From assembly GCF_013315695.1 (NCBI RefSeq), contig NZ_CP054353.1: DNA of 64,000 nt; one strand, 5' to 3'. The notes beneath the pieces are model-generated. The model was not told the origin of the DNA and did no database searches. It saw only the letters and a program-made list of their open reading frames with translations. This stretch comes from Escherichia coli. GTDB taxonomy: Bacteria; Pseudomonadota; Gammaproteobacteria; Enterobacterales; Enterobacteriaceae. Both the position numbers and the translations under genes were made by a program. How positions within the stretch are numbered: the first letter of the stretch is position 1; each line of letters begins with the position of its first letter. Positions 7,920 through 56,106 of this stretch are shown here, piece after piece.

Positions 7920-9444
7920 CCTCTTACTTGGGTTAGTACCAGAACGAATCCGTGCCAGGGCCAATGGCTACTCTTTTCTGTTGTATGACACATCGTGGAC
8001 ATTGGATAGAAATATCACTATTAATCTTGCTGATATTCACCATTACTTGTCAGATGGGACGCTAGATGGCTGCCTGCGTACACTGGCGTTTTATGCATCC
8101 AATCGTTCTTCTTCTCATACAAAAAATATTCTTGAACGGTTTCAGCACATGCTGCGTGAGACTGACGCGAGAGAAATTACTGATACGGTATTGATTAATT
8201 ATCGGTCGATGCTGTCGCCTGCAACAGAATGGTATCTAGCAACCATCCGTGGCTTTCTTCGATCCTGGCACGAACTGGGCTATCCCGGCATCAGTAAGGA
8301 GGTGAACCGCTTGCTAGATGGCTGGACGCTAAAGGGTAATCGTAAGGGGGATGCGGTTAAGCGCATGGATCCTCAAGAGGGGCCACTGACGGATAATGAG
8401 CTGACAGCGTTTAACGAGGGGGCTGTTCGGGCTTATGAAAAGAGCTTAATTACTATAGCTGAGTTGGCTATAGCACTTGGCACCAGTCATACAGGACGTC
8501 GTCCCATTCAGATCTCGCTGCTTCGTGTGGTCGATGTCCTTTGTGGTAAAAATGGAAAGGGAGAGCCCTTCTATGTGTTGAATGTGCCGCGAGCCAAGCA
8601 GCGCAGCAGCTCTTTCCGAATAAACTTCAAACCATTTGCAATATCACTGGAACTATGGGCAATCCTGAGTGCTCAGGCAAGAAATGCGATTGCGCAGGTT
8701 GAAAATCGTTTGGGGTTTGAATTGCAGGAAGATGACCGGCAGCAAATCCCTCTTTTTCCTGATCTTGATGTGTTAGATGCCGTCCAATCTCCTTATGAAT
8801 TCCGCCAACTGCATGCTACCGACAAACTCCACATTCCCGCCGCAGAGATAACCGACACCCTCCAATACATCGTAGAAAAGTCCGACATCCGGTCGGAACG
8901 TACCGGTGAGCTATTACATATCAATGCTCGTCGTTTTCGTTATACCACAGGCACACGAGCTGCCCGGGAAGGCTTTGGCGAGCTGGTGATTGCGGAACTG
9001 CTTGACCACGCGGACACCCAAAACGCAGGCGTTTACATCAAGAATATCCCCGAGCATGTGAAAAAGCTTGATGAGGCGGTTGGCTTCCAATTAGCACCAT
9101 ACGCTCAGGCCTTTGTCGGGGCACTTGTCGATTCAGAGAGAGACGCGCATCGAGGTAACGACCCTACCAGTCGTATTCGGACCGAAATGGGTCAGGGTGT
9201 TGGTACTTGTGGAGAACATGGCTTTTGTGGTGCCAATGTTCCTATTCCTTGCTACACCTGCATGCATTTCCAGCCTTGGCTGGACGGCCCACATGAAGAT
9301 GTCTATCAAGGACTGCTCAACGAACGTGAACGGGTGAAAGAGATAACTGGCGACATCCAGATTGCTGCCGTACTTGATCGCAGTATTATCGCGCTGGCAG
9401 ATGTGATCATGCGTTGTGCAAAACGTCGTGAAGAGCTTAGTTAA
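7906..9444 (+). CDS. Tyrosine recombinase 2 of trio (about 513 aa)
   Basis: C-terminal region with RRFRYTTGTRAAREG and LLDHADTQNAGVYI (R/H...Y pattern); ATG at 7906 or 7912 overlaps the upstream stop at 7917-7919. The ORF-track start at 7792 is rejected as an overlap artefact. Confidence 0.75.
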   Translation: MTMNNLLLGLVPERIRARANGYSFLLYDTSWTLDRNITINLADIHHYLSDGTLDGCLRTLAFYASNRSSSHTKNILERFQHMLRETDAREITDTVLINYRSMLSPATEWYLATIRGFLRSWHELGYPGISKEVNRLLDGWTLKGNRKGDAVKRMDPQEGPLTDNELTAFNEGAVRAYEKSLITIAELAIALGTSHTGRRPIQISLLRVVDVLCGKNGKGEPFYVLNVPRAKQRSSSFRINFKPFAISLELWAILSAQARNAIAQVENRLGFELQEDDRQQIPLFPDLDVLDAVQSPYEFRQLHATDKLHIPAAEITDTLQYIVEKSDIRSERTGELLHINARRFRYTTGTRAAREGFGELVIAELLDHADTQNAGVYIKNIPEHVKKLDEAVGFQLAPYAQAFVGALVDSERDAHRGNDPTSRIRTEMGQGVGTCGEHGFCGANVPIPCYTCMHFQPWLDGPHEDVYQGLLNERERVKEITGDIQIAAVLDRSIIALADVIMRCAKRREELS

Positions 9445-9460
9445 CAGGGAGCAATAACCA

Positions 9461-11494
9461 ATGGCTGAGATTTTCCTGTTTAAGCCAAAGGCTACGCTGA
9501 CAGCAGCAGAAAACCTTGAAGCATTCATATCCCAGTGCCGAGATCAATTGACTGTATTCGGCTCTGATCTCACTTGGGAAGATCCTGTTTGGCCAAACAT
9601 AACTGTATTTGCCAAGTTGGGCATTATTACGAGAAAACCCATACTGGAAGAGACGCAAGACCCTGCTTTCATTGATTTTGCCAAAGCCTATTTCCGTTAC
9701 CAGCAGGGGCATAGCCTCTCTAGGGCAAAGAATGAAAGTAAAGCCCTCCGTGCGGTTGAGGCGGCTTTGCTTCAAGTAAATGGAAACGCAAATATTGATG
9801 GCCTGTCGATTTCTGTGCTGGATGAAGCAGCTGAATTGGCAAAGCATTACTACTCCGATGGCTCCGCATATCATTGTGGCCGTGAGATTGAGCGGCTGGC
9901 TAAGTTTGTAGCTGAAAACCAGCTTGTATCAAGTGCTGTACAAAATTGGGTCAATCCAATTAAACGTGCAGAGGATAAGAACAAAACGAGCAGAAAGGCG
10001 AAGAAAAATAGGGAAGATAAACTTCCGAGTGATATTGCTCTTAATGCGTTGGCGGAAATTTTTGCCAACGACCCAATTCATGAGCGAGACATATTTACAA
10101 CATCGGTTTTTGCCATGTTGATGTCGGCACCTTCACGTATTACTGAGGTGTTAGCACTGCCTGTGGATTGCGAGGTTTTTGAAACGGATCGTGAAGGGAT
10201 AGAACGATATGGTTGGCGTTTTTTTGCGGGGAAAGGCTATGAGGGTGATATCAAATGGATACCCACCGTGATGGTCGGTATAGCTAAGACAGCCGTAGCT
10301 AGAGCTAGAGTGCTCTCTGAAAATGCACGACAACTGGCCAAGTGGATCGAGAAACACCCGAATAAGTTTTACCGCCATGCTAACTGTCCCAGTGTAGCCG
10401 ATGATGAGCCATTGACGATGAAGCAGGTTTGTATGGCGCTCGGTTTTGCACATTACTCTAAAAAGACGTGCAGGTCGTGTCTTGGTAATCGAGGTTTAGC
10501 TAAAGAGGATGGTGTACATACTCTAAATAGCCTGTGGCAGCACACAATGGCGCGTTTACCGGATGGCTTTCCGTGGTTTGATAAAGACAAGGGAATTAGG
10601 TACAGCAATGCCTTGTTTGTACTGAACGTAAATCAGTTCCACGGGAACAGAGGATGCATACCAGTTGAGTTACATAAGCCAACCAATAATTTCTTCAACA
10701 GTGATCTGACGCCTCGTCTGTCCTTGAAAGGAAAACATGCCAGTATCTTTGATCGCCATGGTTACCATGCTGTAAACGGAGAGCCGGTGAAATTAACCTC
10801 ACATCAGGCTCGACACCTGCTCAACACCATTATCCAGCGCGGTGGCCTGTCAAACTTGGAAATTGCCAAGTGGTCGGGGCGGGCAGATGTGAAACAGAAT
10901 CGAACTTACAACCACATGACTGAATACGAACTGGTTGGCATTGCTGAACGCCTTGATCCCACAACAGCGCTATTTGGGCCTGCTGGCGAGGTGGCAAAGC
11001 ATCTGCCCGTGACTATGCAGGAGTTCAATACCTTAGAGCATGCCGCAGTCCATGTGACGGAGTATGGCTACTGTGTGCATGATTACACCATGAGTCCTTG
11101 TGAGAAATTCCGAGATTGCGTCAATTGTACCGAACAGGTTTGCATCAAAGGCGATGATGCTGAAAAGTTGGATCGCATTAAGATACGTCTGGAGAAATTA
11201 GAGCGACTGTTTTTTCTTGCTGACGCAGCAGTGGAAAGTGGTGAGATAGGAACTGATCGCTGGTATCAGTACCACAAGAAAACTGTTACCCGGCTTCGTG
11301 AACTAGTGGCTATTTTAGAGAATCCAGACATTGAAAATGGTGTCCAGATTAAGCTCCGGGGCAATGATTTCAGCCAGCTTCGCCGTGTTGTCGCAAAGAC
11401 GTCTATTGTGGCCATCGAGCAAAAAGGCAAAGAAAGTGAAGAAGCTGTGATGTTAGATGATTTGACAACTTTGTTAGGAGGTGGCCTTGGCTAA
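9461..11494 (+). CDS. Tyrosine recombinase 3 of trio (677 aa)
   Basis: LTSHQARHLLNT (H-x-x-R-H) and WSGRADVKQNRTYNHM (Tyr) motifs; RBS-like cagggag 8 nt upstream of ATG. Confidence 0.75.
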   Translation: MAEIFLFKPKATLTAAENLEAFISQCRDQLTVFGSDLTWEDPVWPNITVFAKLGIITRKPILEETQDPAFIDFAKAYFRYQQGHSLSRAKNESKALRAVEAALLQVNGNANIDGLSISVLDEAAELAKHYYSDGSAYHCGREIERLAKFVAENQLVSSAVQNWVNPIKRAEDKNKTSRKAKKNREDKLPSDIALNALAEIFANDPIHERDIFTTSVFAMLMSAPSRITEVLALPVDCEVFETDREGIERYGWRFFAGKGYEGDIKWIPTVMVGIAKTAVARARVLSENARQLAKWIEKHPNKFYRHANCPSVADDEPLTMKQVCMALGFAHYSKKTCRSCLGNRGLAKEDGVHTLNSLWQHTMARLPDGFPWFDKDKGIRYSNALFVLNVNQFHGNRGCIPVELHKPTNNFFNSDLTPRLSLKGKHASIFDRHGYHAVNGEPVKLTSHQARHLLNTIIQRGGLSNLEIAKWSGRADVKQNRTYNHMTEYELVGIAERLDPTTALFGPAGEVAKHLPVTMQEFNTLEHAAVHVTEYGYCVHDYTMSPCEKFRDCVNCTEQVCIKGDDAEKLDRIKIRLEKLERLFFLADAAVESGEIGTDRWYQYHKKTVTRLRELVAILENPDIENGVQIKLRGNDFSQLRRVVAKTSIVAIEQKGKESEEAVMLDDLTTLLGGGLG

Positions 11495-11906
11495 GCATCT
11501 GGACAATAGAGACATTAACGCCATCGTAAATCTAATTCGAGGATGGAAGGAACCAAAACTGTCCTGGTCAGCAATTTGTGAGGCGGCAGAACCATTGGTC
11601 GGAAAGTTGCCGTCAAGACAGTCCCTTAATGCACATGAGGCAATAGTGACTGCCTATCAAACAAAGAAAGAGGCGCTTAAAGGCCGTGGCCCCAAAAATC
11701 CGCGTCCAGCTAGTTTGAACATTGCAGCCGCGAGGATTGTGAATCTTGAAAGCGAAATCGAAGAGCTTAAGGAAGAGAACCGGAGGTACAAACAACAGTT
11801 TGTGATCTGGCAATACAATGCATACAAATATGGAATGACAGAACATCAACTTAATGCGCAGCTGACAAAGATTGACCGTGAGCGCTCTGATGGAGAAAGA
11901 AGATAG
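11481..11906 (+). CDS. Small protein (about 140 aa) coupled to recombinase 3; possible ginD-like accessory factor
   Basis: ORF overlaps the 3' end of recombinase 3 (GTG 11481 or TTG 11487 just after aggagg); C-terminal half has coiled-coil character (LESEIEELKEENRRYKQQ). Function not recognisable. Confidence 0.5.
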   Translation: MALAKHLDNRDINAIVNLIRGWKEPKLSWSAICEAAEPLVGKLPSRQSLNAHEAIVTAYQTKKEALKGRGPKNPRPASLNIAAARIVNLESEIEELKEENRRYKQQFVIWQYNAYKYGMTEHQLNAQLTKIDRERSDGERR

Positions 11907-11981
11907 TTGCTGAGTACGATATCGAGGGTACATTTCTCTGTGTAGGGGTAGTTATTTACAAAAAAATAGGAGAATAATTAA

Positions 11982-14900
11982 ATGGTCAAACCAAACTGGG
12001 ATAACTTTAAAGCTAAATTTAGTGAGAATCCTCAAGGTAATTTTGAGTGGTTTTGCTACTTGTTGTTCTGTCAAGAATTCAAAATGCCCGCAGGTATATT
12101 TAGATATAAGAATCAATCTGGTATCGAAACTAATCCAATAACCAAAGATAATGAAATTATCGGTTGGCAATCTAAATTCTATGACACAAAATTGTCGGAT
12201 AACAAAGCTGATCTTATAGAAATGATTGAGAAAAGCAAAAAGGCTTATCCAGGATTAAGTAAAATCATTTTCTATACTAATCAAGAGTGGGGGCAGGGGA
12301 GAAAGTCCCATGAACCTGAAGGCGATAAGAACGCTGATAATTATTTGGAAACTGTCGGAAATAGTAACGATCCCAAAATAAAAATTGAAGTTGATCAGAA
12401 AGCATATGAGTCGGGTATCGAAATAGTATGGAGAGTTGCTAGTTTTTTTGAATCACCGTTTGTAATAGTTGAGAATGAAAAGATTGCTAAACATTTCTTC
12501 TCCCTTAATGAAAGCATCTTTGATTTATTAGAAGAAAAGCGCAAGCACACAGAAAATGTTTTATATGAAATTCAAACCAATATAGAGTTCAAAGACAGAA
12601 GTATTGAAATTGACAGACGACATTGTATAGAACTTCTACATGAGAATCTAGTTCAGAAAAAAATTGTCATCGTCAGCGGAGAAGGTGGGGTTGGAAAAAC
12701 AGCAGTTATCAAAAAAATTTATGAAGCAGAAAAACAATACACTCCTTTCTATGTCTTTAAGGCTAGCGAGTTTAAAAAGGACAGTATTAATGAGCTATTC
12801 GGTGCGCATGGCTTAGACGATTTCTCTAATGCTCATCAAGACGAATTACGTAAAGTCATAGTCGTAGATTCTGCTGAAAAGCTTTTAGAACTGACCAATA
12901 TCGATCCTTTTAAAGAATTCCTGACTGTTTTAATAAAGGATAAATGGCAGGTTGTTTTCACAACCCGTAACAACTACTTGGCAGATCTGAACTATGCTTT
13001 CATAGATATTTATAATATAACTCCTGGAAACTTAGTAATAAAGAACCTTGAACGCGGCGAGCTAATAGAGTTATCTGATAACAATGGATTTAGCCTTCCT
13101 CAAGATGTTCGATTATTAGAACTAATCAAAAATCCATTTTATCTAAGTGAATATTTGAGGTTCTATACCGGTGAAAGCATCGATTATGTGAGCTTCAAAG
13201 AAAAGCTTTGGAATAAGATTATTGTCAAAAATAAACCTTCTCGGGAGCAGTGTTTCTTAGCGACTGCTTTTCAGCGGGCTAGTGAGGGCCAATTTTTTGT
13301 CTCCCCGGCATGTGATACTGGAATTTTAGATGAGTTAGTTAAAGACGGAATTGTCGGCTATGAAGCTGCTGGTTACTTCATTACACATGATATATACGAG
13401 GAATGGGCATTAGAAAAGAAAATTTCTGTCGATTATATCCGTAAAGCGAACAATAACGAGTTCTTCGAAAAAATAGGAGAATCACTTCCTGTTCGCCGTA
13501 GTTTTCGGAATTGGATATCTGAACGATTGCTTTTAGATGACCAGTCCATAAAGCCTTTTATCGCAGAAATAGTCTGTGGAGAAGGAATATCAAATTTTTG
13601 GAAAGACGAGTTATGGGTAGCTGTCCTTCTTTCCGATAATTCAAGCATATTTTTTAATTACTTTAAAAGATATTTACTTAGTAGTGACCAGAATCTATTA
13701 AAAAGACTTACTTTCTTATTGAGGCTTGCTTGCAAGGACGTTGATTACGATCTGCTTAAACAGTTAGGTGTAAGTAATTCAGATCTGCTTTCCATTAAAT
13801 ATGTTCTTACTAAGCCTAAGGGAACTGGTTGGCAGAGTGTGATCCAATTTATCTATGAAAATTTAGATGAAATAGGGATCAGAAATATTAATTTTATACT
13901 TCCTGTGATTCAGGAGTGGAATCAAAGAAACAAAGTGGGTGAAACGACTCGATTATCTAGTTTGATAGCCCTAAAATATTATCAATGGACTGTAGATGAG
14001 GATGTCTATTTATCCGGAAGGGATAATGAGAAAAATATTCTGCATACGATTCTTCATGGGGCGGCCATGATTAAACCTGAAATGGAAGAGGTTTTAGTTA
14101 AGGTTCTTAAAAATAGGTGGAACGAGCACGGTACCCCATATTTCGACCTTATGACCTTAATCCTTACTGACTTAGATTCATATCCGGTTTGGGCATCTCT
14201 CCCGGAATATGTTCTACAATTGGCAGATCTGTTCTGGTATCGGCCACTTAAAGAAACAGGCGAACGTTATCACAGTATGGATATTGAAGATGAGTTCGGT
14301 CTATTTAGGTCTCATCACGACTATTATCCAGAAAGTCCATATCAGACTCCTATATATTGGTTACTACAATCACAGTTCAAAAAAACAATAGACTTTATTC
14401 TTGATTTTACGAACAAGACAACGATATGTTTTGCCCACTCCCATTTTGCTAAAAACGAAATTGAAGAAGTCGATGTCTTTATTGAAGAAGGAAAGTTTAT
14501 AAAGCAATATATATGCAATCGTCTGTGGTGCTCATATCGAGGAACACAGGTCTCTACCTACTTACTTTCATCAATTCATATGGCATTGGAAAAATTTTTT
14601 CTTGAGAATTTTAAAAATGCAGACTCGAAAGTGTTGGAAAGTTGGCTTCTTTTCTTGTTAAGAAATACCAAGTCAGCTTCTATTTCTGCAGTAGTTACGA
14701 GTATTGTACTTGCATTCCCTGAGAAGACATTCAATGTAGCTAAAGTACTATTCCAAACAAAGGATTTCTTCCGTTTTGATATGAATCGAATGGTTCTAGA
14801 CAGAACACATAAAAGTTCATTAATCTCCCTCAGGGATGGCTTTGGCGGTACAGATTACAGAAACTCTTTGCACGAAGAAGATAGAATTAAAGCTTGCGAT

Positions 14901-16745
14901 GATGTGCATAGAAATACTTATCTTGAAAATCTTGCCTTGCATTATCAAATTTTCAGGAGTGAAAATGTAACGGAGAAAGATGTCATTGAAAGGCAACAAG
15001 TGCTCTGGGGTATTTTCGATAAATACTATAATCAGCTTCCAGATGAAGCTCAAGAAACTGAAGCCGATAAGACGTGGAGGCTCTGCTTGGCAAGAATGGA
15101 TCGGCGAAAGATGAAAATAACTACCAAGGAGAAAGATGAAGGGATTGAGATATCATTCAATCCTGAGATTGACCCTAAACTAAAGCAATATAGTGAGGAA
15201 GCAATAAAGAAAAACTCCGAGCATATGAAGTATGTAACGCTGAAACTATGGGCAAGCTATAAAAGAGAAAAGGATGAACGTTATAAGAATTATGGAATGT
15301 ATGAGGACAATCCGCAAATTGCTTTACAAGAGACCAAAGAAATAATAAAAAAGCTTAATGAGGAAGGGGGTGAAGATTTCAGACTATTAAATGGTAATAT
15401 ACCAGCAGACGTTTGTTCTGTATTACTGTTAGATTACTTTAATCAGTTGAATAATGAAGAGAGAGAATATTGTAAAGATATTGTTCTAGCATATTCTCAA
15501 CTTCCGTTGAAGGAAGGCTATAATTATCAGGTACAAGATGGGACAACCTCGGCAATTTCAGCCTTACCCGTGATTTATCATAATTATCCAATGGAAAGGG
15601 AGACTATAAAAACAATATTACTTTTGACACTGTTTAATGACCACTCTATTGGAATGGCAGGTGGGCGCTACTCAGTATTTCCTAGTATGGTGATTCATAA
15701 ATTATGGCTAGACTATTTTGATGATATGCAGTCTCTATTGTTTGGTTTTTTGATTTTAAAGCCAAAGTATGTAATTCTTTCAAGAAAAATCATTCATGAA
15801 AGTTATCGTCAAGTAGACTATGACATTAAAAAAATAAATATTAATAAGGTGTTTTTAAATAACTATAAGCATTGCATATCAAATGTCATCGATAATAAAA
15901 TATCTATAGATGATTTGGGAAGTATAGATATAGTTGATCTACATATTTTGAACACAGCTTTCCAATTAATTCCAGTTGATACTGTTAATATTGAACATAA
16001 GCAATTGGTTTCCTTAATTGTTAAAAGATTTTCTACAAGCCTATTGTCAAGTGTTCGAGAAGATAGAGTTGATTACGCTCTTCGGCAGTCTTTCTTGGAA
16101 AGATTTGCCTACTTTACGCTTCATGCGCCCGTGAGCGATATTCCCGATTATATAAAACCTTTTCTTGATGGTTTCAACGGTTCAGAGCCTATTTCAGAGT
16201 TATTTAAAAAATTTATTCTCGTCGAAGATAGATTAAATACTTACGCCAAATTTTGGAAGGTTTGGGATTTGTTTTTTGATAAAGTGGTTACTTTGTGCAA
16301 GGATGGAGATAGGTATTGGTATGTAGATAAAATTATAAAAAGTTACCTTTTTGCTGAATCTCCATGGAAAGAAAACTCTAATGGTTGGCACACATTTAAA
16401 GATAGCAATAGTCAATTCTTTTGCGATGTATCTAGGACTATGGGCCATTGCCCTTCAACTTTATATTCTCTTGCCAAATCTTTGAATAACATTGCCAGTT
16501 GCTATCTTAATCAAGGTATAACCTGGCTTTCAGAAATGTTGTCGGTTAATAAAAAGCTATGGGAAAAGAAATTGGAAAATGATACTGTTTATTTTTTAGA
16601 ATGTTTGGTTAGGCGGTATATTAACACTGAGCGTGAGCGAATTAGACGAACCAAACAGTTGAAAGAAGAGGTCTTAGTAATATTGGATTTTTTGGTAGAG
16701 AAAGGATCTGTTGTTGGTTATATGTCACGGGAAAATATTCTGTGA
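11982..16745 (+). CDS. Large STAND-type P-loop NTPase (1587 aa): N-terminal unknown domain (about 1-220), NTPase core (about 225-330), about 1250-aa helical C-terminal region; candidate anti-phage (Avs-like) protein
   Basis: Strong RBS (aggag, 9-nt spacer). Walker A GEGGVGKT (aa 233-240), Walker B VIVVDSAE (aa 292-299), TTR motif in QVVFTTRN (aa 323-330) typical of STAND NTPases. Very AT-rich codon usage; no transmembrane or secretion signals noticed. Confidence 0.8.
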   Translation: MVKPNWDNFKAKFSENPQGNFEWFCYLLFCQEFKMPAGIFRYKNQSGIETNPITKDNEIIGWQSKFYDTKLSDNKADLIEMIEKSKKAYPGLSKIIFYTNQEWGQGRKSHEPEGDKNADNYLETVGNSNDPKIKIEVDQKAYESGIEIVWRVASFFESPFVIVENEKIAKHFFSLNESIFDLLEEKRKHTENVLYEIQTNIEFKDRSIEIDRRHCIELLHENLVQKKIVIVSGEGGVGKTAVIKKIYEAEKQYTPFYVFKASEFKKDSINELFGAHGLDDFSNAHQDELRKVIVVDSAEKLLELTNIDPFKEFLTVLIKDKWQVVFTTRNNYLADLNYAFIDIYNITPGNLVIKNLERGELIELSDNNGFSLPQDVRLLELIKNPFYLSEYLRFYTGESIDYVSFKEKLWNKIIVKNKPSREQCFLATAFQRASEGQFFVSPACDTGILDELVKDGIVGYEAAGYFITHDIYEEWALEKKISVDYIRKANNNEFFEKIGESLPVRRSFRNWISERLLLDDQSIKPFIAEIVCGEGISNFWKDELWVAVLLSDNSSIFFNYFKRYLLSSDQNLLKRLTFLLRLACKDVDYDLLKQLGVSNSDLLSIKYVLTKPKGTGWQSVIQFIYENLDEIGIRNINFILPVIQEWNQRNKVGETTRLSSLIALKYYQWTVDEDVYLSGRDNEKNILHTILHGAAMIKPEMEEVLVKVLKNRWNEHGTPYFDLMTLILTDLDSYPVWASLPEYVLQLADLFWYRPLKETGERYHSMDIEDEFGLFRSHHDYYPESPYQTPIYWLLQSQFKKTIDFILDFTNKTTICFAHSHFAKNEIEEVDVFIEEGKFIKQYICNRLWCSYRGTQVSTYLLSSIHMALEKFFLENFKNADSKVLESWLLFLLRNTKSASISAVVTSIVLAFPEKTFNVAKVLFQTKDFFRFDMNRMVLDRTHKSSLISLRDGFGGTDYRNSLHEEDRIKACDDVHRNTYLENLALHYQIFRSENVTEKDVIERQQVLWGIFDKYYNQLPDEAQETEADKTWRLCLARMDRRKMKITTKEKDEGIEISFNPEIDPKLKQYSEEAIKKNSEHMKYVTLKLWASYKREKDERYKNYGMYEDNPQIALQETKEIIKKLNEEGGEDFRLLNGNIPADVCSVLLLDYFNQLNNEEREYCKDIVLAYSQLPLKEGYNYQVQDGTTSAISALPVIYHNYPMERETIKTILLLTLFNDHSIGMAGGRYSVFPSMVIHKLWLDYFDDMQSLLFGFLILKPKYVILSRKIIHESYRQVDYDIKKININKVFLNNYKHCISNVIDNKISIDDLGSIDIVDLHILNTAFQLIPVDTVNIEHKQLVSLIVKRFSTSLLSSVREDRVDYALRQSFLERFAYFTLHAPVSDIPDYIKPFLDGFNGSEPISELFKKFILVEDRLNTYAKFWKVWDLFFDKVVTLCKDGDRYWYVDKIIKSYLFAESPWKENSNGWHTFKDSNSQFFCDVSRTMGHCPSTLYSLAKSLNNIASCYLNQGITWLSEMLSVNKKLWEKKLENDTVYFLECLVRRYINTERERIRRTKQLKEEVLVILDFLVEKGSVVGYMSRENIL

Positions 16746-16790
16746 TGTAGTTGAAAATAATAATTTTAATGAGAGCTTTTCCAATTTAGG

Positions 16791-16815
16791 CTCCAGGGAT
16801 TGGAGCCTTTTTATT
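16791..16815 (+). terminator. Intrinsic terminator after the large NTPase gene
   Basis: Hairpin ggctccaggg-a-ttggagcc followed by tttttatt. Confidence 0.6.
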
Positions 16816-16840
16816 ATCGAAAAGATTAATATCTTATAAG

Positions 16841-17059
16841 TCAATCAGTAAAACGCAGCAAAGCTCGTTGCTCTTGAATGTTCACTCCGTGATAAATTCT
16901 TTGATTACCACATAAATAACAAGAACAAGCACAAGGGGTGCAGTAAATTTTCCCTACAACTTTTTCAGTTTTAGCCAACGCAATTCGATATGTTTTTCTC
17001 TTAGATTTTAACCGAGATATATGATGACGACGCCATGCCCGATTTCTAACCATTTCCAT
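16841..17059 (-). CDS. Small basic Cys-rich hypothetical protein (72 aa)
   Basis: ORF with GGAG-type RBS; Arg/Lys-rich N-terminus and a CTPCACSCYLCG cysteine cluster (possible zinc ribbon). No family recognised. Confidence 0.3.
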   Translation of the reverse strand: MEMVRNRAWRRHHISRLKSKRKTYRIALAKTEKVVGKIYCTPCACSCYLCGNQRIYHGVNIQEQRALLRFTD

Positions 17060-17283
17060 TCACTCCAATTTTCTACCGCGGTGTTATACCGCGCCCGTAT
17101 CAATCTTTGGAGTTCGATATCGATCTGACCTTTCATGAATACCTCGGAATTTATCAATAAAGTGAGTGCTATATCATAGCTTATGGGATGAAAGTTTGAT
17201 ATTTAGCACTTTTCAGCTTTAGGTAAAGCTGTCCTCAATAAAGCTAATTTCTTGTTTATTAATGGAATTTCTATGTGGAAGTG

Positions 17284-18105
17284 TTAGAAATCCTGTTTTA
17301 CTTTATCCATCGTTAAAACTTTACTTATTATATAAGGATCATAATTTCTTATACTCATAAGGCAATTTATCAAATTGGAAACGTGGCTATCATCAGGTAT
17401 AAGTATATATTTAATATCATCGAAAGAAAAACCAATGCCAAATTCAGAGAATTTTTTACTTAAGACGGCCTTCTGGTTAGGTTCCACCACTCGCTCTAAA
17501 TTTAGGCTAGGCCATAAATCGCCAACAAACGGATGCGGTACATATCTCCATTCTTTTTCGTCAGCGTAGATATAATTCTCAATGGTTTTTTCGTTCGTCC
17601 TTTCTAATTTCCCTTTATAATTTTTCATATAGCGTAATAAATTATAAAGGTCAGCGTACTCTTCTTTAAGGCTTTCAAAATACTTACGCTCTTTATTATC
17701 AAGGATATGCCTTTTCGACCATAGCGGAATTAACGCATCCTTTAGTTTTCTAATTCTTTTATTATACTTTGAAAATAATTCACTGCCTTGATTCATGTAT
17801 AGAACGGGATGGAGATCATTTTTCTCAGCCCATTCTTTTGTTAACCCAAATCCAAATTCACCATATTTTCCACTATGATCTTTAATCTGAGAAAGCTTGA
17901 TGTCACAGAATGAAACCATTGGTACTGCGAAATTTCTTCTTCCTTTTACTCCGACTATGCGTTCACGGGCAAGAAATGGTTTAAAATAGAGTTCTGTTAA
18001 AATGCTATAGAATGCCTCTTCATTTTTAGTAAAGTGAAACAACGTTGTTGGATGTAAACTATTAACTGCTTGTATAACTGTTTCTTGGTTTTCTATAGCA
18101 CTCAT
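17284..18105 (-). CDS. AbiGi-like abortive-infection family protein (273 aa)
   Basis: N-terminal LFHFTKNEEAFYSILTE... resembles, by recall, the FHFT-type N-terminus of AbiGi-family proteins; AT-rich; convergent with the NTPase gene. Confidence 0.55.
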   Translation of the reverse strand: MSAIENQETVIQAVNSLHPTTLFHFTKNEEAFYSILTELYFKPFLARERIVGVKGRRNFAVPMVSFCDIKLSQIKDHSGKYGEFGFGLTKEWAEKNDLHPVLYMNQGSELFSKYNKRIRKLKDALIPLWSKRHILDNKERKYFESLKEEYADLYNLLRYMKNYKGKLERTNEKTIENYIYADEKEWRYVPHPFVGDLWPSLNLERVVEPNQKAVLSKKFSEFGIGFSFDDIKYILIPDDSHVSNLINCLMSIRNYDPYIISKVLTMDKVKQDF

Positions 18106-23618: not shown

Positions 23619-25044
23619 TAATGCCAGTCAGTTAAGCAACTGACTGGCTCTTTTTCGGGGCTGTGGGGTATTTCCAGGGCCTCTCCTTTACCACTCTCGG
23701 GAAGGCCCTTTCCCTTCTTGTCGGTAATTTCACAAGTTGTCCCATACTTGCAAGATCGCGCATCAGCTCCGGTATACGTCCCGGTGAAGCGCCCTGCAAT
23801 GTCATCAGCATTCTCATCACCATTCCGCATGATTCTGAGAAACTCAGTTGATTCGGCCAGTAACCTTTCAGATGTTCCGCCATTTTAATCATCTGATATC
23901 TCACCAGATTATAAGCCAGTAAGACACCCCACAGCTCTTGCTCCACAAGCTCCGGTTTTTTACTTCTCAGCGTCAGCCTGCTCAGTTGCATCGTCTGTTT
24001 TATCTCCCTGTATCCCAGTTCGATTTCCCAGCGATGACTGTACAGATCCGCCATTTCTCCTCCGGGGAAGCGCATGGCGTCCGTCATCGACGTCAGCAGA
24101 TGGCAGACTTTTCCTTTGCGCGTCACGGTCAGCAGGCGGGCTGTCACTTCATTTCCCAGTCCCGGCCACTTTTTTCGTGCCTGCGGGCTGGTTTTCAGCT
24201 TCACCAGATGATCGCCTTTACCCAGTTTTCTGATCTCTTCATATTGCGCTCCCTTTCTGAGAGGTATCATCCAGTGGCGGTGTTCTCCCGCCAGGCTCCA
24301 GGCATTTAACAGTCCCAGTGAGTAATAACCTTTATCCATTAACGTCAGAGTGTTATCGCCGGTTTGTTCTATAAGTTGCTCAGCAAGCTCATTTTCGCTG
24401 TTCTTCATCGTGCCGAAGGCTGCAGCCGTCAGCAGATGGCTGGTCAGTTCCATCTGGCAGACCATTTTGACCTGCGGGTAGAGCGCCGGGTTCCCGGCAT
24501 GTGTCTGGCGGGGGAAGGCTGCATCGTTCTCTGGTGTATCCGGTGTGCGCCAGAACACACCATCGATGGCCAGCAGGGTCAGGCCGCACCAGTGCGGATG
24601 CGGCGTGGCGTTATGCCAGAGCTGCGCTGTTTTCGTGAACACGCGGCGGACAGCCTCACTTCCCAGGCGCTGGCGGGCCTGAATAACGGCACTGGGGGCA
24701 ACGAAGGGGCGATTGCCCGGCAGCATGATGTCCAGGCGATTCACAATCTGGTGAAGAGGTTCTTTACGCTCAAGCGCCATGCCAACAATACACCAGACCA
24801 TCATTTCGAGGGGAAGACGGCGCTTGCGTAGCGTTACAGTACCTGATTCGGCAAGGCAACGAGAGATGAGTTCGGGGTCGAGGTAATCCCCCAGAGAAGT
24901 CAGTGGGTTACGCAGAGAATCGTAACGGGATACCAGATCAAGAGCCTGTCCAATGTGCATAAAAAAATCCGGAAACAAGTGAGCGTTTCCGGATTCTTAC
25001 ACAGCCACTGGATCGGTCAACTGATCCTTAACTGATCGGCATTA
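23619..25044 (-). mobile_element. Insertion sequence IS4, complete (1426 bp)
   Basis: Terminal inverted repeats TAATGCCAGTCAGTTAAG (left) and CTTAACTGATCGGCATTA (right, 16/18 match); length 1426 bp equals canonical IS4; single transposase ORF. Confidence 0.9.
23632..24978 (-). CDS. insG: IS4 transposase (DDE family, 448-aa ORF)
   Basis: ORF fills the IS; translation recognised as IS4 transposase by recall. Confidence 0.88.
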
Positions 25045-40332: not shown

Positions 40333-42480
40333 TTACGCCAGTGCCGCTTCGCGCAGGCGAGTTTTCAACTTGTTGTACTCGTCAATCACGTACTGCTCGG
40401 CGGCGCGCTGATCGGCGATCGGCTCGACGCGCACGGCGCAGTATTTGTATTCCGGCGTTTTCGTAATCGGGCTTAAGTTTTCGGTAACCAGCTCGTTACA
40501 GGCACCAATCCACCACTGGTAGGTCATGTAAATCGCCCCTTTGTTCGGACGATCGCTGACCTGCGCACGGGTGATAATTTTGCCTTTACGCGAGTGCACC
40601 CAAACCAATGCCTCATCTTCAATACCCAGACGTTTGGCGTCTTCGGTATTGATTTGTGCGTAGCCAGGTTCATCAGCCAGCGCCGCCAGTGCCGCACAGT
40701 TACCGGTCATCGAACGGCAAGAGTAGTGACCAACTTCACGCACCGTTGACAGTACCATCGGATACTCGTCGGTGAGTTTGTCGATTGGCGCTACCCAGTC
40801 GCAGGTGAAGAACTGCGCCAGACCGTTCGGGGTATCAAACTTCTCTTTAAACAGATAAGAAGTCCCCTGATCGGCATCTGAAGTATCGCGGCAAGGCCAC
40901 TGAATGAAGCCCAGTTCGCCCATTTTCTCGTAAGTCGCACCGTAGAAATCCGGGCACAGATGACGCAACTCATCCCAGATCTCCTGGGTGTTGTTGTAGT
41001 GCATCGGATAACCCATACGGGTGGCGATTTCACTGATGATTTGCCAGTCCGTTTTCAAATCCCATTTCGGTTCAACTGCTTTAAAGAAACGCTGGAAGCC
41101 ACGGTCAGCCGCAGTAAACACGCCTTCATGCTCGCCCCATGACGTTGACGGTAAAATGACATCCGCCGCCGACGCGGTTTTGGTCATAAAGATGTCCTGA
41201 ACGATGACCAGTTCCAGATCTTCAAAGGCTTTACGTACTGCCGACAGCTCCGCGTCAGTTTGTAGCGGATCTTCGCCCATAATGTACGCGGCACGCACTT
41301 CACCATGCTCTGCGCGGTGCGGCAGCTCGCTGATGCGATAACCGGTATGAGCGGGCAGGCTTTCCACGCCCCAGGCTTTGGCGAATTTCTCGCGGTTAGC
41401 CGGATCTTTCACATACTGGTATCCCGGATACGTATCCGGCAGCGCGCCCATATCGCAGGCACCCTGCACGTTGTTCTGACCACGAACCGGGTTTACACCC
41501 GCATGCGGCTTACCGAGGTTACCAGTCAGCATCGCGAGGCTGGTCAGAGAACGCACGGTTTCCACGCCCTGGTAGAACTGGGTTACACCCATGCCCCACA
41601 GGATGGCGGCGCTTTTCGCCTGGGCATACATCCGCGCCGCCTGACGAATCTCACTGGCGCTGACGCCGGTGATATCTTCAACCGACTCCGGCGTGTAGCC
41701 TTCAACGATTTTACGATACTCTTCAAAGCCTTCTGTACGGGAAGCGACGAACGCTTTGTCGTACAGATTTTCTTCAATAATGACATGGCCCATCGCATTC
41801 AACAGCGCGATGTTCGAGCCGTTTTTCAATGCAATGTGCATGTCAGCAATGCGCGCAGTTTCAATTTTGCGCGGATCGCAGACGATAATTTTCGCCCCGT
41901 TACGTTTAGCGTTAATTACGTGATTCGCCACGATTGGGTGGGAATCCGCCGGGTTATACCCGAAAACGAACACTAAATCGGTATTATCAATTTCGTTAAT
42001 AGCATTGCTCATTGCGCCATTACCGACCGATTGGTGCAGACCTGCAACCGATGGGCCGTGTCAGACACGAGCGCAGCAGTCAACGTTATTGGTACCAATA
42101 ACGGCGCGCGCAAATTTTTGCATTACATAGTTGGTTTCGTTACCCGTACCACGCGAGGAGCCGGTCGTCTGGATGGCATCCGGACCGTACTTCTCTTTGA
42201 TGGCGCTCAGGCGCTCGGCAACGTAATTCAGTGCCTCATCCCAGGAAACAGGTTCGAGTTTGCCGCCACGCTGGCGACGGATCATGGGGGTTTTCAGGCG
42301 CGGGGTCAGGATCTGGGTATCGTTAATGAAGTCCCAGCCATAATAACCCTTCAGACACAGGGTACCCTGGTTGGTTTTCCCCTGCGCTGCCTCCGCCCGG
42401 ACGATTTTGCCGTTATCGACGACCAGGTTGATTTTGCAACCTGATGCGCAATAGGGGCAAACCGTGACGACTTTTTTCAT
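40333..42480 (-). CDS. fdhF: Formate dehydrogenase H, selenoprotein (715 aa; in-frame UGA at 42058-42060 decoded as selenocysteine)
   Basis: Two ORF-track segments (42061-42480 and 40333-42012) are in the same frame and separated only by TGA; N-terminus MKKVVTVCPYCASGCKINLVV...; SECIS-like hairpin immediately 3' of the UGA. Confidence 0.95.
42010..42057 (-). other. SECIS element (selenocysteine insertion hairpin) within the fdhF mRNA
   Basis: mRNA sense reads UGA CAC GGC CCA UCG GUU GCA GGU CUG CAC CAA UCG GUC GGU AAU; matches the fdhF SECIS stem-loop by recall. Confidence 0.75.
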
Positions 42481-47725: not shown

Positions 47726-49711
47726 TTAATTTGGGGTTACGATATTCACCCACAAATCGAAATTATCCAGACAGGCAATAATTTCTTCCAGTTTTGCGCC
47801 ATTGCCAATAATTTTGGCTTTCTTCGCCTTTACCAGATCCGCCATTTTGGCTTGTCCGACCAGCACGTCGTGCAGATCGCTGCGGCTCATGTAAAACGAT
47901 GCGTCTACCTTCGGTTGCAGTACTTTACGGTAGTTCAATACGCTATTGTTGAGTGAGAGGTTCAGGTTATCGTTGTCAGAGAGATTGAAGTTCAGGCTGA
48001 TGGATTTGCCCGCGGCTTTCTCACTGTTCAGACGAACAGCCATGTAATCAAGCAGCATCTCGACGGTCATACCCTTGATGGTGTCAGGAGAGGCGGTGCT
48101 GGCGTGTTCGATTTTCTTCGCGCCCTCACGCAGTTCTTTCGCTCCCGTCAGGTAGAAGCCGCGCCAGGTGGCTGATTCGGCCTGATAACCCAATTGTTCG
48201 AAGGTATCGGCCTGTAGGTTTTTCGCCACCTGGTCTCCCGGATTGGCAGCAATCACCTGTTTCAGCAGTTCAGAGGCCCAGCGGTAGTCGCCCTGGTTAT
48301 AGGCTTCACGCGCCAGATTGATAGCATGTGCGGAACCTCCCAGCGCTTTGACATAACGTTTACCCATATCGACCTGGCCATACGGATTCAGGTTTGCTGG
48401 GTTACCGTCGTAGTAGCCGAGGTAAAAGTTATATACCGCGCGAGCGTTATGACTGACGGAGCCATAATAGCCACGGCTGGCCCAGTTTTTATCCAGCGTT
48501 TCCGGCAGATGAATCATGTTGCCGATTTCATTCATGGTGTAACCCTGGTTCGCCAGGTGCAGGGTCTGGTCGTGAATATACTTAATGGTGTCGCGATATT
48601 TTCCAATATAATCATTGATATGTTGATTACCCCATACTGGCCAGGTATGTGGCATAAACAGCACTTCTGCTTGTGATCCCCACTTATCCAGCGTTTCATT
48701 CAGGTAATCGGTCCACTTCGCGGTATCACGGGTTTTCGCGCCACGCAGGGTGTAGAAGTTATGCAGGGTATGGGTGCTGTTTTCCGCTGTGCACAGGGCT
48801 TTCAACGCCGGAATATAGAGGTGCATTTCAGACGGCGCTTCGCTGCCTGGAGCCATCAGGAATTCGAAATCCAGCCCGTCGATATTGAGTTTCTCTCCTG
48901 TCTTGGTGATAGATCGCGTCGGCGCGATAATTGTCGGGCCGCCGGTAGTAAGCGTAACACCCAGCCCGTTGCCGATATCTCCCTGTGCATTATGCGGGAG
49001 TAGCAGGCCGTAAGAGTAAAATGCACGGCGACTCATGATATTACCCGCCAGCACGTTTTCACTGATGGCTTCGTCCATAAAGCCTGCCGGGGCGATGATC
49101 TGCACTTTGCCTGCTTTTACATCGGCTTCTGAGACAATACCTTTTACGCCGCCATAGTGGTCAGTGTGGCTGTGGGTGTAGATAACGGCCACAATCGGTT
49201 TTTGTGGGCGGTGTTTGAAATAGAGATCAAGGCTGGCTTTTGCTGCATTTGGCGTCACCAGCGGGTCAATGACGATGATGCCCGTATCACCTTCAATGAA
49301 GGTGATGTTCGAGATATCCTGGCTGCGCACCTGATACATGCGGTCGGTGACTTTAAACAGGCCAGAAATGCCGTTGATCTGCGACTGACGCTACAGGCTT
49401 GGGTTAACGGTTTCGGGCGCGGGCGCATTGATATCAAATTTATAATCTTCTCCGAGATAATATGGTTTGCCATTAGCATCGCGCAGAATACCTTCATCCA
49501 GCAGCGGAGCGATAAATCCACGCTGAGCATCGTCAAAATCCTGACGATCGCTAAACGGTAATGATTTGGCGTAATTCTGATTAACCTGTTGGGTATATTG
49601 AGTGGCGGCTTTCGCTTCATCTGTTGCGTTAGCGGTATTTACCATCATGCCGCTGGCGGCAGTTAACGCAATAACAATCCTGCTCAAACGGAATAACCGA
49701 GAGTTATTCAT
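47726..49711 (-). pseudogene. yjcS: Alkyl/aryl-sulfatase family (MBL-fold) yjcS interrupted by an in-frame TAG at 49391-49393
   Basis: ORFs 49391-49723 and 47726-49339 are in the same frame; direct translation across the gap gives ...[31 protein letters not shown]...; MBL motif [11 protein letters not shown] is downstream of the stop. Confidence 0.8.
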
Positions 49712-49983: not shown

Positions 49984-51592
<1,609 letters not shown>

Positions 51593-51602
51593 GTTTAATT
51601 CC

Positions 51603-52583
51603 TTACTTACTGATAAGACGGTCAAGGGCGACAGCCGCGATAATTAATCCGCCCATCACCACCAGTTGGTAATAGGTTTGTACCTGCAAAATATTCAGAC
51701 CGTTGTTGATGGTGCCGATGATCAACCCGCCAATCACCACAGAGAAAATGCGCCCCTTGCCGCCGAAGAAACTGGTGCCGCCAATGATGGCGCTGGCAAT
51801 GGCATAGGTTTCAAAACCCATACCGGCAAGCGGTTCTGCGGCACCGAGTCGTGCAGTTGAGACGACGCCTGCCAGACCTGCACAAACACCGGAGATGATA
51901 AACACCACCAGGATGTGGAATTTCACGTCAATCCCGGAATAGAACGCCGAGTTTTTGTTGCCGCCCAGTGCGTAGATGTTGCGTCCGAGCCGCATACGCG
52001 TTGTCAGAAACCAAAGGATGAGCGCGACAATTAGCGAGAAGATAACGGGAACAGGTATCCCAATTACGCTGGCGGCAAAGAAGTTCACGAAGTCAAATTA
52101 GAAGCCGTATACCGAGTTGGCATCGGAGATCACCAGCGTGATCCCACGGAAAATAGCGTTGGTACCAAGGGTGATAATAAATGGGTGTAGCCCCGTCCAG
52201 TTGACCAGGCAGCCGTTGATCGCCCCCAGTGCACCGCCAACCAGTACACCGCCAATCAGCGCCGCGAGAAACGGGTCAACACCTGCCAACATCAGTTTGG
52301 CGGTCACCATACCGGAAAGCGCCAGAATCGCGCCAACCGAGAGGTCGATACCAGCGACCAGGATAGCGAAAAACTCGCCCATGCCGATCAATACCGTCAC
52401 GGAGCTTTGCACAAAAATCTGGGTAATATTATTGGTGGTCAGAAAATATTCTGGTGACAGCGAACCAAAGATGGCGACGATGATCGCCAGGATAAAAAAG
52501 GTGCCGTATTTATCCCAGAACAGCGCAAAGTTGAACGGTTTCTTCTCGCTCGCTTCGCTTTTTACTCGTGTGGTAAAGCCCAT
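51603..52583 (-). pseudogene. alsC: D-allose ABC transporter permease alsC interrupted by an in-frame TAA at 52098-52100
   Basis: ORFs 52098-52583 and 51603-52088 are in the same frame; translation reads ...SDANSVYGF*FDFVNFFAASVIG...; total span equals 326 codons, as expected for AlsC. Confidence 0.8.
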
Positions 52584-54094
52584 GCCATAATCTCCTCTTC
52601 GCTCATGTCATCGCGATTCGTCAGGATTTGCGTCAGTCGTCCTTCGCAGAACACGGCGATGCGGTCGCAGACGGTGATAATTTCAGGTAGTTCAGATGAC
52701 ACCATCAGGATGACTTTTCCGTCGTCCGCCAGTTGGCGCATCACTTTGTAAATTTCGGCTTTCGCGCCAACGTCGATGCCGCGGGTAGGTTCATCGAAAA
52801 TGATCACTTCCGGGCAACAGCACAGCCATTTGGAGATCAGGACTTTCTGCTGATTCCCCCCGGAGAGTTCGGTGATATTCTGGTTTATCGAATGACATTT
52901 CAGTGCCAGCAGTTCGCGTTGATTTTCAGCGGTACGTTGCTCGTCAACTTCATGAAACAAGCCCATCGCGCCTTTATAGCCGCCGTCTTTCAGACTGCGG
53001 CTGATCGCCATGTTCTGAGCGATGGAAAAGTTGGGGAAAAAACCGTTATCCCGGCGGCTTTCAGTGATGTAAGCCATCCCTTTTTTCACGGCATCCAGGG
53101 GTGAGCGTGGAGAGATATCTTTGTCATTAAGACGGATTTCTCCGCCAGCGCGTTTATCAACGCCAAACAGGCAGTTCATCAGTTCAGTACGTCCGGAACC
53201 GACCAGTCCGGCAAAGCCTAATATTTCTCCCCGGCAGACGCTAAATGAGATATCCCGGACCTTTTTTCTGTCACGGCTGGTGACGTTGCGCACCTCAAAA
53301 ACCGTATCGTGCGCAAGGTTGCTGACATTCTCCTTCATCGCGTTAAAACGGTTTTGCAGTTCGCGGCCTACCATCAGACGGACGATATCGTCATTTGACA
53401 CATCGCTCACCATGCCGCTGCAAACGCTGCTGCCGTCTTTCATCACCGTATAGCGGTCGCAAATACGGCGAATTTCCGCCAACTTATGCGAGATATAGAC
53501 GATGGCCGTACCCTCTTTACGCAACTGATTCATGATCAGAAACAGATAGTCCACCTCTTTATTGGTGAGTGAGGAGGTGGGTTCATCCATGATGATGACT
53601 TTGGCGTCGAGCATCAGCGTTTTGGCAATTTCCAGCATCTGCTTGTGGCTGATAGATAAGTTCGCCACTTTCTCATCTAAATCAACTTTCAAGCCCACGC
53701 GTAATAACATCATGGCGGCGCGGACACGCATTTCTCGCCAGTCGATAATATTGACGCCACAGATTTTTTTCGTCAGATGACGACCAATATATAAATTTTC
53801 CAGTACGGTTAATTCATCAATAACGCTGAGTTCCTGATAAATGATCCCGATACCGAGTTGTGCCGCTAATTTATGATCCAGCTTGTTATAGTTAATGTTA
53901 TTAATGGTAATGGTGCCTTTGGTTGGCTCATGTATTCCGGATAACACTTTCATTAGCGTGGATTTACCCGCGCCATTTTCTCCTAGTAATGCATGTATTT
54001 CACCAGGATAAACCGTTAAATTAACCGACTTTAATGCGTGAACCGGACCAAAGGACTTGCCGATCCCCGCCATCGATATATATGGCGTGGCCAT
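52562..54094 (-). CDS. alsA: D-allose ABC transporter ATP-binding protein (duplicated ABC domains, 510 aa)
   Basis: Two Walker A motifs (GENGAGKST, GLVGSGRTE) and LSGGNQQK signature. Confidence 0.92.
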   Translation of the reverse strand: MATPYISMAGIGKSFGPVHALKSVNLTVYPGEIHALLGENGAGKSTLMKVLSGIHEPTKGTITINNINYNKLDHKLAAQLGIGIIYQELSVIDELTVLENLYIGRHLTKKICGVNIIDWREMRVRAAMMLLRVGLKVDLDEKVANLSISHKQMLEIAKTLMLDAKVIIMDEPTSSLTNKEVDYLFLIMNQLRKEGTAIVYISHKLAEIRRICDRYTVMKDGSSVCSGMVSDVSNDDIVRLMVGRELQNRFNAMKENVSNLAHDTVFEVRNVTSRDRKKVRDISFSVCRGEILGFAGLVGSGRTELMNCLFGVDKRAGGEIRLNDKDISPRSPLDAVKKGMAYITESRRDNGFFPNFSIAQNMAISRSLKDGGYKGAMGLFHEVDEQRTAENQRELLALKCHSINQNITELSGGNQQKVLISKWLCCCPEVIIFDEPTRGIDVGAKAEIYKVMRQLADDGKVILMVSSELPEIITVCDRIAVFCEGRLTQILTNRDDMSEEEIMAWALPHE

Positions 54095-54221: not shown

Positions 54222-55157
54222 TTATTGAGTGACCAGGATTGAATCGACCAGTTTAAATTCCGGTGCTTTATCCAGCGGGATAACCTTGCCGGATTTCTCA
54301 GCGTCAACCATCAGCTTCAGACCCGTTGCACCGATATCCGCCGGGTTCTGGGCAACCGTCGCGGTCATTTGTCCGGCTTCCACCATTTTGCGGGCTTCCG
54401 GAATTCCATCTGTACCGACGACCAACACTTTGCCCGTTTTTCCGGCGTTTGCGACTGCCTGAGCAACACCCATTGCCATCGTGTCATTCGCGCAATAGAT
54501 CGCTTTAATATTCGGATTACGTTGCAACACGTTAGTGGCGACATCCAGTGCTTTAATACGGTCCCAGTCGGCAGGCTGGCTGGCGACAAGCTTGATCTGG
54601 CTTGCTTTTTTGAAGGCTTCGGTGGCACCATTACGACGCGCTTCACCGGAGGCGTTACCGGCTTTACCCTCAATGATTGCGACTTCACCCCCTTCGGCAC
54701 CCAGCTTGTCAATAATGAATGACGCGCCTTTCGCCCCGACGGCAACATTATCGGTGGTGACAAAACCTTCCACATTACCGCCTGCTTTTTTCAGATTATC
54801 CATGTCGATTTTTTCATCGAGATTGACCAGATAAATGCCTTTTTTCCATGCGCGGGCGACAGGCATGACCAGATTTACTGAGGATAATGGCGCGAAGGCG
54901 ATACCTTTGTAATTTTTATTACTGAGATCTTCAAATAACTGCAATTGAGATTGAAAATCGCCTTCTGAAGGAGAGGCAAAAATATCAACGCTGACGCCTA
55001 GCGTTTTTGCTTCATCTTCAATGCCTTTTTTCATATCTACCCAAAATGGATTGGAGAGTGTTTTCAATACGACGGCATATTCGGCGGCAGCAAAAGCGCT
55101 GGTTGACAACATTAAGCCCACGAGTGTGCCGCTGAAATATTTCAGATATTTATTCAT
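54222..55157 (-). CDS. alsB: D-allose periplasmic binding protein (311 aa)
   Basis: Signal peptide (LMLSTSAFAAA) plus periplasmic sugar-binding fold. Confidence 0.9.
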   Translation of the reverse strand: MNKYLKYFSGTLVGLMLSTSAFAAAEYAVVLKTLSNPFWVDMKKGIEDEAKTLGVSVDIFASPSEGDFQSQLQLFEDLSNKNYKGIAFAPLSSVNLVMPVARAWKKGIYLVNLDEKIDMDNLKKAGGNVEGFVTTDNVAVGAKGASFIIDKLGAEGGEVAIIEGKAGNASGEARRNGATEAFKKASQIKLVASQPADWDRIKALDVATNVLQRNPNIKAIYCANDTMAMGVAQAVANAGKTGKVLVVGTDGIPEARKMVEAGQMTATVAQNPADIGATGLKLMVDAEKSGKVIPLDKAPEFKLVDSILVTQ

Positions 55158-55215: not shown

Positions 55216-56106
55216 TTATTTCAGCGCGCCTGGTGAGAAGAAATCAACAATTGCGCCGGTTTTTTGCATATTAATATTAGCTTGTTCAATGTTGAGCTGG
55301 GCGACAGAGACAAAAAACGCGTCCAGCAAAGTTAGTTGTAATATTCTTGCCGAGGCATTACGACCTAATAACGGTGTTTCCGGGGCCGGTGAGCAAATAA
55401 TATAATCGGCCAGCTTCGCTATCGGTGAATGGTAGCTATGCGTTATACAAATAATCTTTGCCCCGTTCTTTTTTGCCAGTTCTACAGCCGCTTTTACATC
55501 ACTGGTTCGCCCGGAATGGGTCACCACCAGCACCACATCTCCTTCCTGTAACAACGAAGCAGACATCATCATGATGTGAGCGTCCGGATAGGCCTGGCAG
55601 CGTACGCCAATGCGTAAAAACTTGTGCTGTACATCAGCACAGATAGCATTTGATCCTCCGGCACCGTACAAATCCCGCTGTCTGGCCTGATAGAAAAAGC
55701 GGGCGGCACGGTGGATCTCATCAACGTTGACGATCGACTGACCTTCCATAATGGTGCGTAAAGTGATGTTAAATACCTTATTCACCACATCCTGCGGCGC
55801 TTCATCAAAAGCCAACTCGGACGGCAATACCTGTTCTGACTGAGAAAAATAATCTTCCAGCGCACTGCGTAAGTTACGAAAGCCGCTAAACCCCAGCAGC
55901 TTTGATACCTTAACGATCATCGCTTCAGATACCGCCAGAGCTTCTGCGACATCTTTAATTGCGGGTGCACAACTCAGGTTACCGGGTTTGAGTAACCACT
56001 CCACGATGCGGCTTTCGTTTTCTGTCATTCCTTCCTGCTTCATTCGCAGGTAAGGCGCTAACCCGATACCGTTCGGAAGCGCTGAATCAAACTCTGACTG
56101 GCTCAT
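55216..56106 (-). CDS. rpiR: RpiR/AlsR transcriptional repressor (HTH plus SIS domain)
   Basis: N-terminal HTH, C-terminal SIS-like region; divergent from rpiB. Start taken at the internal Met for a 296-aa product. Confidence 0.88.
   Translation of the reverse strand: MSQSEFDSALPNGIGLAPYLRMKQEGMTENESRIVEWLLKPGNLSCAPAIKDVAEALAVSEAMIVKVSKLLGFSGFRNLRSALEDYFSQSEQVLPSELAFDEAPQDVVNKVFNITLRTIMEGQSIVNVDEIHRAARFFYQARQRDLYGAGGSNAICADVQHKFLRIGVRCQAYPDAHIMMMSASLLQEGDVVLVVTHSGRTSDVKAAVELAKKNGAKIICITHSYHSPIAKLADYIICSPAPETPLLGRNASARILQLTLLDAFFVSVAQLNIEQANINMQKTGAIVDFFSPGALK

Follow-up and report, generated by a model that had tools for sequence, protein, structure and literature searches.

A premature ochre codon in the D-allose permease gene alsC is inherited within one natural Escherichia coli lineage

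The als genes of the window (the whole 64-kb stretch of DNA that was analysed) follow the order alsR-alsB-alsA-alsC-alsE-alsK, flanked by a divergent rpiB upstream and by yjcS on the downstream side, as given by the RefSeq annotation of near-identical genomes. The AlsA, AlsE and AlsK frames all scored above their own cutoffs against the corresponding NCBIfam equivalogs, and the location of alsC inside the als operon, as claimed in the original prediction, was confirmed by the gene order together with these hits. The alsA frame overlaps the alsC start by 22 nt. Coordinates carried over from the locus of strain MSB1_4I were converted as window position = locus coordinate + 27000. Apart from alsC, every als gene is intact and encodes a protein identical to its counterpart in the sister genomes. 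The features are collected in Table 1.

Table 1. Positions of the als genes, the alsC subfeatures and yjcS in the window.
Feature	Coordinates	Strand	Basis
alsC pseudogene, D-allose ABC transporter permease	51603..52583	-	translation, NCBIfam, Pfam, RefSeq of genomes with identical alsC
premature ochre TAA, codon 162	52098..52100	-	translation and alignment to relatives
remaining N-terminal alsC ORF, ATG start, 161 aa + stop	52098..52583	-	ORF list
residual C-terminal alsC frame, GTG start, 161 aa, residues 166-326	51603..52088	-	ORF list
alsA, ATP-binding subunit, intact, 510 aa	52562..54094	-	ORF list, alignment, NCBIfam
alsB, periplasmic D-allose-binding protein, intact	54222..55157	-	annotation transferred from MSB1_4I
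alsR, RpiR-family regulator, intact	55216..56106	-	annotation transferred from MSB1_4I
alsE, D-allulose-6-phosphate 3-epimerase, intact	50897..51592	-	NCBIfam
alsK, allose kinase, intact; start overlaps alsE end	49984..50913	-	ORF list, NCBIfam
yjcS pseudogene, alkyl/aryl-sulfatase	47726..49711	-	alignment, RefSeq of near-identical genomes

Translation of the window yields an alsC frame of 327 codons, counting the terminal TAA, that contains a single internal stop in the peptide context ...SDANSVYGF*FDFVNFFAASVIG.... Retranslation and the ORF list agreed with the original prediction on the coordinates, the codon, the surrounding peptide and the length of the frame. The comparison with a reference alsC codon, which had been proposed as a check, was made by aligning the window with the sister genomes MS 21-1 and AF14 and the outgroup TCM3e1. 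These relatives carry TCA (Ser) at codon 162 where the window carries TAA, so that the coding strand has undergone one C>A transversion; at the derived base, window position 52099, the plus strand reads T in the window and G in the relatives (G>T). The intact AlsC protein (WP_000507105.1) is identical across the sisters and the outgroup, and consequently the ochre codon is the sole change in the window alsC. Because one base is all that separates the interrupted allele from the intact one, chance is not at issue.

The identity of the gene was assessed after restoration of Ser162. The resulting 326-residue protein gave 654.1 bits against the NCBIfam AlsC equivalog NF007252 (curated cutoff 396 bits), with residues 1-326 aligned to model positions 1-326, and this end-to-end match upholds the earlier assignment of the frame as alsC. 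The next-best family was the ribose permease RbsC, at a far lower score. The Pfam domain BPD_transp_2 (PF02653) was found at residues 52-318 of the restored protein (E = 5e-55). The 161-residue truncated form, by comparison, reached 310 bits against NF007252, which is under the cutoff, and the uninterrupted frame that membership of the equivalog entails is broken in the window by the TAA at codon 162. The window alsC carries a real premature ochre codon and is a pseudogene; it does not encode a functional member of the AlsC family.

The ochre codon cuts the BPD_transp_2 domain roughly in half, and the N-terminal half remains. No PDB chain matched AlsC by sequence, and the break was placed from the hydropathy profile instead. 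It falls in a hydrophilic loop (DANSVYGFSFDF) between hydrophobic segments, and the truncated protein is without the hydrophobic segments at approximately residues 166-190, 216-242 and 305-325. Also downstream of the stop, and absent from the truncated form, is the conserved GGNKNSAFYSGI loop (GGN..A...GI, residues 207-218), which corresponds to the cytoplasmic segment that couples permease to ATPase in this permease family.

Isolate AF3, from a blood culture in the UK, and strain MSB1_4I, from a rectal swab in Australia, carry an alsC whose nucleotide sequence matches that of the window at 100% identity, TAA included; outside alsC, a few SNPs set the window apart from both genomes. In both genomes the gene is marked by PGAP as a pseudogene with an "internal stop" (AC9VVF_RS20075 and JMX41_RS23995, respectively). 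The distribution of the allele was determined by querying 5,426 complete genomes with a 55-mer centred on the variant base, such that each 28-base megablast seed must span that base. The derived 55-mer matched two of these genomes, AF3 and MSB1_4I, and a control 55-mer with the ancestral base matched 3,372. The stop is accordingly found in 2 of the approximately 3,374 complete E. coli genomes that bear alsC, and no parallel mutation at the same site was found in other lineages among the complete genomes. The exact 161-residue product was in addition recovered from 774 public contigs (NCBI, ENA, JGI and Logan), including those of E. coli KTE69 and KTE143; the split products of KTE69 in GenBank are ELF13737.1 and ELF13736.1, and the truncated protein is identical to that of the window. 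In the two examples examined, an ENA assembly and an NCTC genome, alsC and yjcS were both split in the same way as in the window. NMEC O18 was considered as a carrier of the stop and rejected, as it has only a 130-residue C-terminal fragment in common.

A separate observation concerns a K-12-type alsC fragment of 162 residues, present on 111 contigs of approximately 4-5.3 kb (Logan and ENA). In the four contigs examined the gene occupies positions 3001-3486 and the contig ends right after codon 162, beside the site mutated here. Coverage is low in one of the four (0.7x), and the sequencing runs appear to have no connection with one another. These features suggest a recurrent cloned fragment, a contaminant, or an insertion or deletion junction.

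Along its full 64 kb the window runs colinear with MSB1_4I, with 6 SNPs between the two, and is therefore another isolate of the same clade. SNPs at window positions 24590, 28814, 52904 and 61352 separate it from MSB1_4I, and three of these are private to the window relative to the sisters and the outgroup, namely 28814 (yjcH E17K), 52904 (alsA codon 397, synonymous) and 61352 (phnK V161A). Judged by these positions, the window is a further isolate of the stop-carrying clade, separate from both complete genomes. From E. coli clock rates, the approximately 1e-4 differences per site between clade members would, as a rough inference, make the allele decades old or more. The window contains no MLST loci; among the closest non-clade genomes are ST648 strains, listed as phylogroup F in PMC8281228. 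No paper joining alsC, allose and pseudogene was found in the literature searched, and that on strains MSB1_4I and MS 21-1 offered nothing useful on the allele or the lineage.

The annotation of the colinear MSB1_4I genome also describes an insertion adjoining ssb/uvrA at approximately 6672-18105, that encodes an Avs4 (AVAST type 4) anti-phage nuclease and carries an AbiGi-family gene, two integrase/recombinase genes and two hypothetical ones; it looks like a small integrative defence island.

The stop in yjcS lies 2.7 kb from that in alsC. Codon 107 of yjcS is changed from TGG (Trp) to TAG at 49391-49393 (derived base 49392, W107*), and the gene also carries a derived missense change, R86L (49455). 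The centred 55-mer test for W107* returned the two complete genomes that carry the alsC stop and no others; yjcS is likewise annotated there with an "internal stop", and both lesions were consequently inherited together on one branch of the lineage. They form a convenient marker pair for it. The original prediction had called a second independent nonsense mutation near the yjcS TAG notable. It is indeed a separate mutational event, 2.7 kb away; however, the pair is co-inherited and only mildly unusual. The branch leading to the clade holds 8 shared-derived substitutions in window 27001-64000, comprising 2 nonsense, 2 missense, 3 synonymous and 1 intergenic. With approximately 3.5% of random coding substitutions in these genes giving a stop, the probability of at least two nonsense changes among 7-11 substitutions is approximately 0.02-0.05, a mild excess that was selected after the fact. 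Two further in-frame stops in the window concern other genes. The TGA at codon 140 of fdhF (40333-42480, minus strand) encodes the selenocysteine expected in formate dehydrogenase H and is no lesion, and an IS4-family transposase pseudogene with an internal stop (approximately 23632-24978, minus strand, from the annotation of the colinear MSB1_4I) constitutes a further nonsense lesion.

In combination, these observations favour, with a probability of about 0.93, a lineage-specific alsC pseudogene. The C>A change (TCA, Ser162, to TAA) would date to the ancestor shared by a natural E. coli clade, with vertical inheritance from then on. Translation would end after residue 161, leaving a product that retains about the N-terminal half of BPD_transp_2 and is devoid of the C-terminal hydrophobic segments and the GGN..A...GI loop. 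The AlsBAC importer would in this way be inactivated, and the fixation of the allele is most likely due to drift, selection on an accessory operon being weak.

The suggestion in the original prediction that selection on these genes is relaxed gains support from the wider distribution of the locus. The alsC gene is present in 3,382 and absent from 2,044 of the 5,426 complete genomes (38% without), and differently truncated AlsC products occur in other lineages. Moreover, the sister MS 21-1 has a 2-bp deletion in a ATATATAT ((AT)n) run near the alsA start, equivalent to window 54076-54077; its alsA is annotated as frameshifted, with alsC and yjcS intact. This deletion is an independent lesion of the same transporter or, possibly, an assembly error. 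Likewise, the NCTC clade member GCA_900448625.1, which also has the alsC and yjcS stops, shows compensating -1 and +1 indels in A-runs of alsA, 175 nt apart (window 53799 and 53624), which may represent further decay or long-read homopolymer errors. Since the remaining als genes of the window show no lesion and encode the same proteins as in the sisters, the loss of alsC is recent by the standards of gene decay. The pattern is that of an accessory operon that was inactivated not long ago and is weakly selected.

The main competitor to drift is fixation by positive selection, the lineage having gained in its niche by shedding allose or ribose uptake or the cost of expressing the operon. The two nonsense changes among the 8 shared-derived substitutions in 37 kb, in mild excess over the neutral expectation, would fit such a scenario, as would the independent alsA frameshift in MS 21-1 and the fact that the allele has persisted and spread across countries. 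However, the statistic is weak and post hoc, no functional link between yjcS and alsC is known, and the frequent complete absence of als agrees equally well with neutrality. Among the complete genomes, furthermore, other lineages show no parallel hits at the same site. An adaptive loss is therefore considered unlikely, and the neutral pseudogene remains the preferred reading.

Considerably less probable still is a functional split gene. An in-frame GTG (52088) follows the stop by 9 nt and opens a 161-codon ORF; reinitiation at this codon could in principle supply the second half, so that residues 1-161 and 166-326 would assemble with AlsA and AlsB and render the strain allose-positive. The break in a hydrophilic loop between hydrophobic segments would be favourable to such an arrangement, and both halves are otherwise unchanged. 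Conversely, no Shine-Dalgarno-like sequence was found upstream of the GTG, residues 162-165 would be lost, and no permease of this type that is naturally encoded by two genes is known to us. The allele is moreover limited to one young clade, not conserved, and the presence of the yjcS nonsense mutation on the same branch fits decay. If true, the arrangement would represent a natural split ABC permease made by one nonsense mutation, a prospect that we regard as very improbable next to simple loss of the gene.

Readthrough of the ochre codon, by a suppressor tRNA or through its context, would yield full-length AlsC, and some low-level readthrough occurs at any stop codon; nothing specific points to it here. 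The stop lies in the context TAA-T, which is among the most efficient termination signals of E. coli, and neither a leaky context nor a downstream stimulatory structure was found (the downstream hairpin has z = -1.3 against shuffled sequence). The stop is also not conserved across related lineages, as would be expected of recoding, given two complete genomes with the derived base against 3,372 with the ancestral TCA. No tRNA gene, and hence no suppressor tRNA, is encoded within the 64-kb window, an ochre suppressor would be costly genome-wide, and PGAP treats alsC as a pseudogene. Readthrough can consequently be given hardly any weight.

A sequencing or assembly error concealing an intact alsC is a similarly negligible prospect: a single-base change might in principle be an error, but this one is a substitution rather than a homopolymer indel, and the same base is found in two complete genomes sequenced independently in different countries, in the ENA assembly and in the NCTC genome, with the exact truncated product on 774 contigs. 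The original prediction had further raised the laboratory history of a stock strain, in which nonsense mutations do build up; this is contradicted by the carriers, primary isolates (clinical or carriage) in UK, Australian and other collections with several SNPs per 64 kb between them, and has next to no likelihood. The shared allele in independent clinical genomes and 774 contigs thus excludes both sequencing error and laboratory history. The alsC stop is a lesion inherited within one natural E. coli lineage, and the window gene is an ordinary lineage-specific nonsense pseudogene, already flagged in public annotation. It is best annotated as a pseudogene, as in RefSeq, and not as an assembly error.

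The expected consequence follows from the role of AlsC in transport. AlsB, AlsA and AlsC form the allose transporter (PMC9633178), and AlsC is in addition described as a route of low-affinity ribose uptake (PMC12589546). As AlsC is the only membrane subunit of AlsBAC, uptake of D-allose as well as low-affinity uptake of ribose is predicted to be lost. The strain should accordingly fail to grow on D-allose, residual function being conceivable, and the same allose-negative phenotype is predicted for the clade as a whole.

An effect on the genes downstream of alsC can also be envisaged. The premature stop leaves 505 nt untranslated up to the alsE ATG (51592), which may reduce expression of alsE and alsK via Rho-dependent polarity. 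The first approximately 180 nt after the stop have a C/G ratio of 1.10-1.44 in 78-nt windows, a modest bias that is compatible with Rho loading and not striking. A pattern scan for minus-strand promoter-like sites between the alsC stop and alsE, from which alsE and alsK might be rescued, returned none. Polarity on alsE and alsK is plausible on these grounds, and would have little further effect on the phenotype if uptake has been abolished anyway. An intrinsic terminator exposed by the stop was considered separately and rejected, as the weak hairpin at 52062-52046 shows no gain in folding energy over shuffled sequence (z = -1.3).

The situation resembles classical Rho-dependent nonsense polarity in that a premature stop within an operon is followed by untranslated mRNA before the next gene. 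It differs in that alsE has a ribosome-binding site of its own (AAGGA), that no intrinsic terminator is exposed, and that polarity in the present case is a prediction from sequence. The reference for the gene itself is E. coli K-12, whose AlsBAC importer and alsRBACEK operon are described in passages of PMC2808357 and PMC9633178 that cite Kim et al. 1997 and Poulsen et al. 1999. The K-12 AlsC agrees with the window gene in identity, in its length of 326 residues, in operon position and in its neighbours, whereas the window frame is broken at codon 162 and leaves a 161-residue fragment. Beyond bookkeeping the alsC stop is of little importance, and it constitutes one further case in which the dispensable als operon of E. 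coli has decayed. A closely related outcome is known from E. coli EAEC 042, which has no als locus and is allose-negative on Biolog plates (PMC2808357). The predicted outcome, no use of D-allose, is the same in both strains; however, in EAEC 042 the whole locus is missing, whereas here a point mutation is flanked by intact neighbours.
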